64,000 bases of DNA, taken from the sequence record OM362897.1, one strand, 5' to 3'. The position numbers were made by a program, and so were the translations under genes. The notes under the pieces are model-generated. The model was given only the letters and a program-made list of their open reading frames with translations. It was not told the DNA's origin and did not search any database. Shown in pieces: positions 16,535-18,930 of this stretch; the stretch's first letter is position 1, and each line of letters opens with the position of its first letter. The stretch comes from Escherichia phage SKA64.

Positions 16535-16563
16535 TTGACTTGCGGGATTAGTTATGATATTAT
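16535..16563 (+). promoter_or_regulatory. sigma70-like promoter
   Basis: TTGACT, 17-nt spacer, TATTAT. Followed by hairpin GCCTACCT...GGTAGGC-TTTTT at 16564-16592. Confidence 0.4.
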
Positions 16564-16602
16564 GCCTACCTACTTAATGAGGTAGGCTTTTTAGGAGGCG
16601 TT

Positions 16603-16812
16603 ATGAAAAAGATTCTGACAGTCGTTCTTTTAGCTTTTAGTTTCACAGTAGCAGCAGGTCAAATTACTTTAATCTTGTCTGATTCTGAAGTTAATGGCAA
16701 TACAAAATATTGCTACTATTCTAACGCTAACCAAGATGAAGTTATAGCAATCCCGAAAAGTCGTCAATGTCCGTATACTAAAACATTCTCAACAGAGGAT
16801 GACGATGAATAA
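16603..16812 (+). CDS. small secreted protein with signal peptide
   Basis: 69 aa, N-terminal MKKILTVVLLAFSFTVAAGQ, two Cys, acidic C-terminus. Confidence 0.45.
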   Translation: MKKILTVVLLAFSFTVAAGQITLILSDSEVNGNTKYCYYSNANQDEVIAIPKSRQCPYTKTFSTEDDDE

Positions 16813-17253
16813 TTAGGGGGAAATATTAGCGGTTATATTTTAATTAAACCTGAAGATCTTCATTTATATGTCAACGAAGAAACAATAGCTGCAATTGATT
16901 ATGATCAGATCGCTTTCCAAGCAGCGTCTGCATTAGAGAAAAGAACAATCATTGCGAAGCACATCCCTTCAGGTGCTCAAAAGGAATTTAAAAATAAGAC
17001 AGAGTTTTGGGGTAAAAGCAAGACTAAAATTGGAGGTTGGCTAGGAGATACAAATGCAGAAAGAGCCTCCAAAAACAAACGTCCCTTCACAAAGGAAGAG
17101 TTCGAAATCATTGATAAGCAATACCCGCCAGAAGATATCGGACACACCTTCCAAGCAGCTAAAACAAAAGTCTTAGGTATTCTAAAACATCTACGTTTAG
17201 AAAAATATTGCGGAGTTATTGGCGTAGGAAAAACTTTCAGACACGCCTTCAAA

Positions 17254-17943
17254 ATGCCTGTAGAATATAAATCTGAACGATTAGATATCAAACCACTTCA
17301 GCTTTCAGAAACCAAAGATTATCTTGTGGAGTTCCACAATGGTGATGTTGTTACTGTAATAGAAGCTGATGATGAGTTAGAGAAGTATGGTTTCCAAGGT
17401 TATAAAGATTATAAAAGGACGGGTAAATTTTCTTATATCGTAGTATCTATAGATAAAGATAGTTTACATACTCCTAGTATCCTTTTTAATTTCTACAAAG
17501 AGGATGGAGTATTTAAAAATCCAGATATAATTCTTATTGACGAGTCTATTGGCGATATATGGATCGTAGATAAAGGTAAAAAGAAAGAAGTTAAAGGTTG
17601 GGGCAGTTACTGGTTAGCATACCAGATGCTAATGGGAGATAAAACAGATAGTATCCGACCTTATCAAGATTTTGATATTAAGTTCGGAGATATTACTTGT
17701 TTTAATCTTCTTTCAGCTTGTAAAACTCAAGCAGAACTTTTCCAAACAGTTAAAGATACTTACTACTCATGGTTCCCAGATGGTGTTAATTTTACTTCTT
17801 GGGATGGAGAAGAAGTCCATATGACAACAGATGAATGGATAGAAACAATTTTCCAGTTGGTATACATGAAACGCTGGGATAATGACGATACAACATTTGA
17901 GAGTATGCTTCAGTCATACATCTCGCAACAGGAGGCAGAGTGA
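17254..17943 (+). CDS. T4 RNase H-like 5'-3' exonuclease (FEN family), ATG-delimited part only
   Basis: VIEADDE, IVVSIDKD and LMGDKTDSIRP match FEN/RNase H motifs. The conserved N-terminal region appears to be encoded upstream in the same frame (see findings). Confidence 0.55.
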   Translation: MPVEYKSERLDIKPLQLSETKDYLVEFHNGDVVTVIEADDELEKYGFQGYKDYKRTGKFSYIVVSIDKDSLHTPSILFNFYKEDGVFKNPDIILIDESIGDIWIVDKGKKKEVKGWGSYWLAYQMLMGDKTDSIRPYQDFDIKFGDITCFNLLSACKTQAELFQTVKDTYYSWFPDGVNFTSWDGEEVHMTTDEWIETIFQLVYMKRWDNDDTTFESMLQSYISQQEAE

Positions 17944-18899
17944 GCAGATTAACAGAAGAGCAGAAAGCAGATATCCTTAGTATGAGTGCAGAGGGTATGT
18001 CTTCTCGCAATATTGCAGCAATTGTTTTAGGTAGTCCAACAAGAAAAAGCACAGTGAACGATTTCCTTGCACGATTCGGAGCAAGTAAACAAGAGCCAGT
18101 TAAAAAGAAACAACCAGTTATTAAAATTATTGATGTTGAAACTGCACCAGAGATTGCATATACTTTCCGTCGATTCAAAGCCTTCATTTCTCCAGATCAA
18201 GTAATTCGTAGGGGTTATTTGTTATCTTACTCTTCTGCTGACCTGTATACTGGTGAAGTGGAAGGTAAGAACTTGTCTTCTTATCCTCTTTTTGATATTG
18301 ATCATACAGATGATTGGGAGCTTTGCCAAGATCTTTGGAACCTTCTGAATGAGGCAGATGTAGTTGTGGCACACAACGGATATAAGTTTGACCGTGCATA
18401 CATTAACCAACGATTTGCATATCACGATATGGCTCCTCCTTCTAATTATGTAGTTGTTGATACATTGAAGGCAGCTAAGAAACAATTTGCACTTCCTTCC
18501 AACTCCCTTAAAGAAATGGGAGCATATTTCGAAACAGAAAGTGAAAAACTGGATAACGAGGGGTTCCCTTTATGGAAAGCATGTTGTGAAGGTGATCGTG
18601 ATGCTTTTGAACGTATGCAGATTTACAATGATGGTGATGTTGTTTCACTCCGTGATTTGTATATGAAAATCCTTCCGTGGATTCCACAGCATCCTAACTT
18701 ATCCGCTTATTACCCAGATGAGAAGGTCCGTTGTTCTCGTTGTGGCAGTGATCACGTTCACGTCGTTACTGGTAAACAATACCACACTGCGGTAAGTTCT
18801 TTCGATATCATTCGTTGTGAATCTTGCGGCGGTTTGTCACGTAGTAGAGCAAACACCAGATCCAAGGATAAACGAGCAGCAACTATCATTGGAATCTAA
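17940..18899 (+). CDS. DEDD-family 3'-5' exonuclease with N-terminal HTH and C-terminal zinc ribbon
   Basis: IDVETA, VVAHNGYKFD and YNDGDVVSLRDLY exonuclease motifs, plus CSRCGS...CESCGG. Confidence 0.5.
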   Translation: MSRLTEEQKADILSMSAEGMSSRNIAAIVLGSPTRKSTVNDFLARFGASKQEPVKKKQPVIKIIDVETAPEIAYTFRRFKAFISPDQVIRRGYLLSYSSADLYTGEVEGKNLSSYPLFDIDHTDDWELCQDLWNLLNEADVVVAHNGYKFDRAYINQRFAYHDMAPPSNYVVVDTLKAAKKQFALPSNSLKEMGAYFETESEKLDNEGFPLWKACCEGDRDAFERMQIYNDGDVVSLRDLYMKILPWIPQHPNLSAYYPDEKVRCSRCGSDHVHVVTGKQYHTAVSSFDIIRCESCGGLSRSRANTRSKDKRAATIIGI

Positions 18900-18905
18900 T
18901 AATCA

Positions 18906-18930
18906 GGGAGCTTATTGCTCCCTTTTTTAT
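18906..18930 (+). terminator. rho-independent terminator
   Basis: GGGAGC-TTATT-GCTCCC followed by TTTTTT. Confidence 0.6.

Follow-up and report, generated by a model that had tools for sequence, protein, structure and literature searches.

Where does the gene for the predicted FEN-type 5' nuclease of Escherichia phage SKA64 begin? The window studied here, 64,000 nt of record OM362897.1, comes from a phAPEC8-like Phapecoctavirus (Stephanstirmvirinae), and the region of the gene is 99-100% identical to 64 phage records of this genus. An earlier note on this DNA had observed that the frame of the ORF at 17254-17943 remains open over the 147 codons at 16813-17253, back to the TAA at 16810-16812, and that none of these codons is ATG, GTG or TTG. 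We re-derived the coordinates and repeated the codon check, and both observations hold: the ATG at 17254 is the first canonical start, and 17943 is the last position of the stop codon. The stretch also reads as had been described, with GGGGG at 16816-16820, AAAT at 16821-16824 and then an in-frame ATT at 16825-16827. Its translation includes ...EDLHLYVNEETIAAIDYDQIAFQAASAL, and the preceding ORF (16603-16812) shares the nuclease frame in the window.

In the neighbouring genes ATG, GTG and TTG account for 5.2% of the codons (63/1214). At that frequency, the probability of finding 143 successive codons without any of them is about 5e-4. Two six-frame scans of the 64-kb window revealed no other start-less or near-cognate-started gene. 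Thus, the nuclease was the sole plausible gene with at least 35 start-less codons at its 5' end, and its frame was the only one in which a near-cognate codon with a strong Shine-Dalgarno (SD) sequence, defined here as -8 kcal/mol or lower, precedes the first canonical start by 10 codons or more.

Most public annotations start the gene at the ATG (17254..17256, plus strand), which corresponds to the internal Met144 codon of the gene proposed below. The records inspected carry a 229-aa 'putative exonuclease' from this ATG, and the approximately 440 nt before it are either blank or occupied by ORFs of 30-40 aa. Among the 60 Phapecoctavirus records listed, 40 have no feature over the N-terminal stretch, 13 have a spurious 'hypothetical protein' (so that this part is blank or filled with a spurious ORF in 53/60), 5 are unannotated and 2 have an exonuclease. 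The small 'hypothetical proteins' are almost certainly spurious; such fillers, in other frames, are found in L002 at 2055-2177 (phAPEC8_00121) and in L054 at 653-745 and 755-877 (WPEC4). The two exonuclease annotations are those of phage ESCO13 and its RefSeq copy (KX552041.2 / NC_047770.1), where an identical 372-aa CDS begins at the same ATT and is accompanied by an RBS feature. In an exact-sequence look-up, the 372-aa protein starting M-SGYILIK... was found as AQM50955.1 / YP_009786567.1. Note that the ESCO13 entry is a database annotation only, the ATT start being absent from the ESCO13 genome announcement. UniRef100 merges sub-fragments into one cluster, and the UniRef100 cluster (n=12) was therefore not taken as 12 full-length annotations.

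The problem is not confined to one genus. In four Justusliebigvirus records (L004, L081, L082 and L083, corresponding to phages ECGD1, ESCO8, inny and J-01), the annotated gene starts 28 codons beyond the conserved ATT, at a GTG within the coding sequence. This GTG sits inside the DYDQ-V motif, and the annotated protein loses D25 and D27. Among the relatives, the position of the first canonical in-frame codon varies from codon 10 to codon 148, and since it wanders, the protein lengths proposed by gene callers are scattered. We also observed that records named as Campylobacter, Acinetobacter, Klebsiella or 'Dompiswa' phages share 99-100% identity with E. coli Phapecoctavirus in this region; judged on this identity, their host labels may be unreliable.

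Our results demonstrate that the 143 codons from the ATT at 16825 to the ATG are real coding sequence, which is conserved and forms part of the fold. In support of this, pN in the N-terminal part was 0.09-0.34 and pS was 0.63-0.90 when the gene was compared with 16 relatives reaching down to 50% identity; the C-terminal part gave similar values, and the synonymous sites of the N-terminal part were saturated in this comparison. The nuclease frame stays open in every relative examined. Moreover, tblastn with the extended frame matched about 1200 phage records, of which about 900 cover at least 80% of the query, annotated full-length genes included. The alignment of this frame with homologues annotated at full length, for example those of rV5-like, Certrevirus, PAK_P5-like and ICP1 phages, runs from one end to the other. 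The Felixounavirus homologues are full length too (346 aa), with a more divergent N-terminus.

The earlier note had also proposed that the codons for the conserved N-terminus of the nuclease precede the first canonical start, and the profile search, the conserved columns, the structural model and the alignments of the relatives all bear this out. The profile of phrog_107 ('exonuclease') covers residues 10-367 of the extended translation with an E value of 1.4e-55, and it is matched by the N-terminal part by itself with an E value of 5e-7. Counted from the ATT, the gene has 372 codons plus TGA (16825..17943, plus strand), and its N-terminal 143 codons (16825..17253, plus strand) encode beta1 with D25 and D27, alpha1 with E38, an inserted subdomain and R139. 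In an alignment of 45 sequences, D25 and R139 are invariant, and D27, E38 and K113 are nearly so; all of these residues lie upstream of Met144. The Met144 column itself is occupied by L, T, M, A or S across the 45 homologues, and by M or L within the clade. The AlphaFold2 model built from the same alignment had a pLDDT of 96.1 and a pTM of 0.90, and residues 1-10 averaged 88.

The predicted model adopts a PIN-like alpha/beta fold that can be superposed on solved FEN-family nucleases. In the structure-comparison table, it scored 15.9 with a plastid 5'-3' exonuclease, 14.5 with the FEN of M. smegmatis, 13.9 with E. coli ExoIX, 13.6 with the T5 exonuclease and 13.2 with T4 RNase H. Foldseek, for which the best matches were T5 FEN and ExoIX, agrees with this table. 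D25, E180, D182, D183, D210, D212, D272 and D275 are invariant across the 45 homologues, and the EADD, DKD and GDxxD motifs align with those of Taq and T4 RNase H. From its sequence and its modelled structure, the product is predicted to be a FEN-type 5' nuclease.

In sequence, however, the protein is very divergent from the T5 D15 flap endonuclease and T4 RNase H. Sequence searches with it gave no match in Pfam, NCBIfam or PDB, and a profile search of PDB gave just a marginal match to the Taq 5' nuclease (E 0.086). With T4 RNase H, hhalign aligned the central part only (E 7e-4, probability 27%) and not the N-terminal motif with which the earlier note had compared the N-terminus. The Pfam family PF02739 (5_3_exonuc_N) leaves the window protein unmatched and is matched by 15 of the 45 homologues, with E values down to 1.7e-6 and scores of 24-28 bits, which are below the curated cut-off of 34.3 bits. 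These matches span residues ~85-200, and Met144 falls inside that region; the 229-aa product would therefore lack beta1, alpha1 and the invariant N-terminal acidic residues. Thus, the suggestion that the ATG-delimited ORF is missing part of the nuclease domain proved correct.

Two other features separate the protein from the classical FENs. After beta1/alpha1 it has an inserted subdomain of ~55-70 aa (residues 37-100), and at the position aligned with the metal-binding Asp of the known enzymes (T4 D71, Taq D67) it has a nearly invariant Gly133. D25, from its place at the end of beta1, is probably the counterpart of T4 D19 and T5 D26, and the near-invariant D27 and E38 of the N-terminal part might compensate for Gly133.

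How, then, is this N-terminus translated? The proposed initiation codon, ATT (AUU; 16825..16827, plus strand), follows by 3 nt the 9-mer SD UUAGGGGGA (16813..16821, plus strand), whose duplex with the 3' end of the 16S rRNA was calculated at -9.3 kcal/mol. Neighbouring genes started by ATG and GTG show the same SD geometry, with values of -10.2 to -10.3 kcal/mol. The corresponding value for the ATG at 17254 was 0, and at the other in-frame ATH codons the SD is absent or misplaced. The RNA around the start (fold of 16770-16880, z = -0.43) was no more structured than shuffled controls, and for this reason we propose no structural switch.

We gathered the homologous regions from phage records, IMG/VR contigs, metagenome contigs and contigs encoding database homologues, and obtained 26 distinct start contexts from relatives with 100% to ~50% protein identity (the offset of L078 was set by hand). 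Scans of viral contigs with two divergent clade members added no new lineages. The codon located 2-4 nt after the SD duplex was ATT in 11 contexts, ATC in 9, ATA in 5 and CTG in 1; ATG, GTG or TTG occupied this position in none of the 26. Of the 21 contexts scored, 20 had a predicted SD of -9.3 to -12.6 kcal/mol; the exception was L044, which was scored one codon off and has only a weak AGGA-type SD. Hence, a weak codon class (AUU, AUC, AUA or CUG) is kept at the start across the whole Stephanstirmvirinae-like clade.

Note that ATT, ATC and ATA are synonymous Ile codons, and their interchange would be equally expected at an internal Ile codon. Since this interchange alone proves nothing, the case for a start codon rests on the adjacent stops, the SD, the starts of the outgroups and the single CTG, a codon that is rare in the gene that bears it (2 of the 27 Leu codons). 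The ATC of three contexts (L015, L030 and L032) comes immediately after a TAA in the same frame, so in these the protein cannot start further upstream. The in-frame 'residues' before the codon vary (LGGN, IGGN, EDN, KGGS and others), a variation that would be expected of an SD constrained at the nucleotide level, and protein conservation (ISGYILIKPEDL, ISKFETISLEDL) starts at the near-cognate codon itself. In all, an SD lies at a functional distance from this codon, and no canonical start able to encode the conserved N-terminus is present.

The more distant relatives mark the same position with canonical codons. At 47% identity, the homologous codon of L079 is a TTG, and a TAG in the same frame directly precedes it. 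Relatives at or below 42% identity (Vequintavirinae and others) have ATG, TTG or GTG there, and in the relatives at or below 47% identity the homologous TTG, ATG or GTG stands directly after an SD. In alignment A1, 27 of the 45 N-terminal Met residues fall in the column of Ile1 of the window protein. In this the window protein differs from the annotated homologues in T4-like phages and more distant relatives, which use canonical start codons. Of the three explanations offered in the earlier note, initiation at the ATT at 16825 is thus the one that the comparative data support, through the SD and the 26 start contexts.

From these comparisons, translation most likely starts at the ATT at 16825, with AUU as the codon actually used; the first residue would presumably be fMet. 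An additional short product starting at Met144 may be made as well. In the literature we found no proteomics, ribosome profiling or toeprint data for any member of the clade, and no description of the ATT start codon or of expression data for these phages.

The surroundings of the gene are organised as follows (all on the plus strand unless stated otherwise). A 69-aa ORF (16603..16812), which matches phrog_4641 with an E value of 7e-27, precedes the nuclease, its TAA lying 12 nt before the ATT. Its N-terminus, MKKILTVVLLAFSFTVAAG, resembles a signal peptide, its tail is acidic (DDDE), and two Cys look conserved in the C-terminal segments of the relatives. Almost all members of the clade have this ORF immediately ahead of the nuclease gene, and its stop precedes the near-cognate start by 8-16 nt. 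In L077 (ENA ERZ1524533 NODE_1, ~363-376; 57% identity) the upstream gene encodes instead an N6/N4 DNA methyltransferase, whose TAG lies in the SD, 8 nt before the ATT. Because this TAG is still inside the SD, the stop-SD-ATT layout persists although another gene lies upstream.

Upstream of the three-gene block, a consensus scan revealed a promoter-like, sigma-70-like TTGACT-17-TATTAT with an upstream TG (16535-16563). It adjoins a terminator-like hairpin (16564-16587), annotated as a terminator in ASO2A, and a transcript from the promoter-like site would begin inside or at this hairpin. The hairpin may terminate the rdgC-like gene, may act as a stem-loop that stabilises the 5' end of the next operon, or may do both. 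Downstream, the ORF list and the annotations place a gene for a DnaQ-like 3'-5' exonuclease (17940..18899) with an SD of -10.3 kcal/mol and a GTG start that overlaps the nuclease stop (GTGA, 17940-17943). A terminator-like site from the consensus scan (18905-18923, no strand assigned) follows it. The small ORF, the nuclease and the 3'-5' exonuclease thus look like a tightly coupled translational unit ending at 18905-18923.

This layout gives some weight to the idea of termination-reinitiation, in which the AUU would serve chiefly or exclusively ribosomes that have just translated the upstream ORF, whose stop is 12 nt away. We regard this as a real, if minority, possibility. In 21/21 scored contexts the near-cognate start follows the upstream stop by 8-16 nt, the stop often being inside the SD (UGAAUAGGAGG), and the methyltransferase gene of L077 likewise ends 8 nt before its ATT. 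Furthermore, in reporters with closely spaced cistrons, including one with the infC-like arrangement UAA GGU AUU, about half of the initiation at the second cistron was due to reinitiating ribosomes (PMC3592434). However, a strong SD at canonical spacing suffices for de novo 30S binding, and the co-occurrence with the upstream ORF could reflect mere shared ancestry. With reinitiation, synthesis of the nuclease would be stoichiometrically coupled to that of the upstream ORF. The idea is a variant of the main reading and is compatible with independent initiation as well.

A start at another non-canonical codon slightly downstream, such as the ATT at 16837, the ATT at 16843 or the ATA at 16885, is very unlikely. 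In-frame near-cognate codons do exist there, and the SD ends 15 nt before the ATT at 16837, but none of the three has an SD at a working distance. Moreover, ATH is not kept at 16837, 16843 or 16885 in the group with 50% identity, whose sequence is ISKFETISLEDL; residues 5-14 are confidently modelled within the fold, and the start codons of the outgroups align with 16825.

Slightly less credible still is that translation truly begins at the ATG at 17254 alone, and that the 143 codons before it are the decaying remnant of a truncated gene or pseudogene. Most of the public records seen are annotated in this way, but the ATG has no SD and Met144 is not conserved. The low pN relative to pS in relatives down to 50% identity, together with a frame that is open in every one of them, argues against decay, and the 229-aa product would begin inside the PF02739 region and would have neither beta1 nor D25, D27, E38 and R139.

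Read-through of the TAA at 16810-12, the second explanation of the earlier note, would fuse the upstream 69-aa protein with the nuclease, and we give it hardly any credence. The two ORFs do share one frame in the window, and a 444-aa 'fusion' protein, P0005, exists in the database. However, the upstream ORF is out of frame in 7/21 scored contexts, three contexts have two in-frame stops, and in L077 the upstream gene is the methyltransferase, with its TAG inside the SD. The N-terminus of the upstream protein, which from its sequence looks like a signal peptide, would also speak against such a fusion. As for P0005 (L023 1501-2835, Logan contig SRR30397360_28145), we rejected it as an artefact in which the gene caller read the junction TAG as Gln, probably encouraged by the start-less gap. 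Finally, the loss of a canonical start codon through an error of sequencing or assembly, which has nothing in its favour beyond the oddity itself, can be dismissed for practical purposes, since the same sequence is present in 64 independently sequenced phage records and several metagenomes and the non-canonical start recurs in 26 divergent contexts; error and pseudogene were the remaining explanation of the earlier note, and the recurrence of the sequence and the low pN go against both.

Taken as a whole, the reading that we consider highly probable is that the locus encodes a 372-residue FEN-type 5' nuclease, translated at a low level from a start codon of the AUU class placed on a strong SD. 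In this mechanism, the SD would place the AUU at 16825 in the ribosomal P site, where initiator fMet-tRNA would read it inefficiently, by analogy with infC and pcnB. The combination of a strong SD with a weak start codon would then keep the output of a potentially harmful nuclease low, and initiation at the AUU would perhaps be aided by ribosomes that terminate 8-16 nt upstream. We infer that low expression, limiting a harmful nuclease, would be the purpose of the arrangement.

AUU initiation has precedents in E. coli, where infC and pcnB are the only confirmed AUU-started genes (bioRxiv 10.1101/063800); the same two are cited as AUU-started by Osterman et al., in whose reporters the output from AUU was 6-8 times below that from AUG or GUG (PMC3592434). 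According to Hecht et al. (bioRxiv 10.1101/063800), AUU, AUC, AUA and CUG form the near-cognate class that initiates in E. coli at 1-2% of AUG, and the four start codons seen in our clade are exactly this class. As occurs with infC and pcnB, the nuclease gene has a near-cognate AUU behind an SD; in those genes the inefficient codon limits expression, and the unusual start is conserved among orthologues (PMC3592434; 10.1101/063800). As in infC (UAA GGU AUU), moreover, a few nucleotides separate the start from the stop of the gene before it (PMC3592434). In contrast to both, this is a phage nuclease gene, and within the clade its start codon varies between AUU, AUC, AUA and CUG. The autoregulatory logic of infC is not evident here, because the product is not IF3.

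To turn the weak start into ATG, one base change would be enough. Since no canonical start is present in any of the 26 contexts despite saturated synonymous divergence, the comparison argues that the weakness of the start is itself under selection. A more elaborate version, which we think rather improbable, is that the weak start is a selected sensor, in which the SD, the AUU-class codon and the terminating ribosome would together tie the nuclease to initiation fidelity (the IF3-to-ribosome ratio) or to translation of the upstream gene for a putative secreted protein. If this were true, the output of the FEN would change during infection, and the phage would possess a viral equivalent of the AUU control of infC, maintained throughout a phage subfamily.

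Initiation at near-cognate codons is an established mechanism, and the ATT is already annotated in one public record, that of ESCO13. In the literature we found no paper on a weak start-codon class kept for a nuclease gene throughout a subfamily, nor on the scale of the mis-annotation. This scale has practical consequences. Most of the annotated public Phapecoctavirus records seen give a nuclease that is 143 residues short; the one given in the four Justusliebigvirus records checked is 28 residues short and has lost the predicted first catalytic-site Asp. The gap that is left has led some pipelines to fill it with spurious small ORFs and one to recode a TAG as Gln, and function prediction, structure prediction and pangenome clustering inherit the truncation error.

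For the biology of these phages, the start remains within a four-codon near-cognate class although protein identity falls to ~50% and synonymous sites are saturated. At the level of sequence, this conservation is clean comparative evidence for selected weak initiation, and it offers a tractable phage system for the study of control at the level of the start codon.
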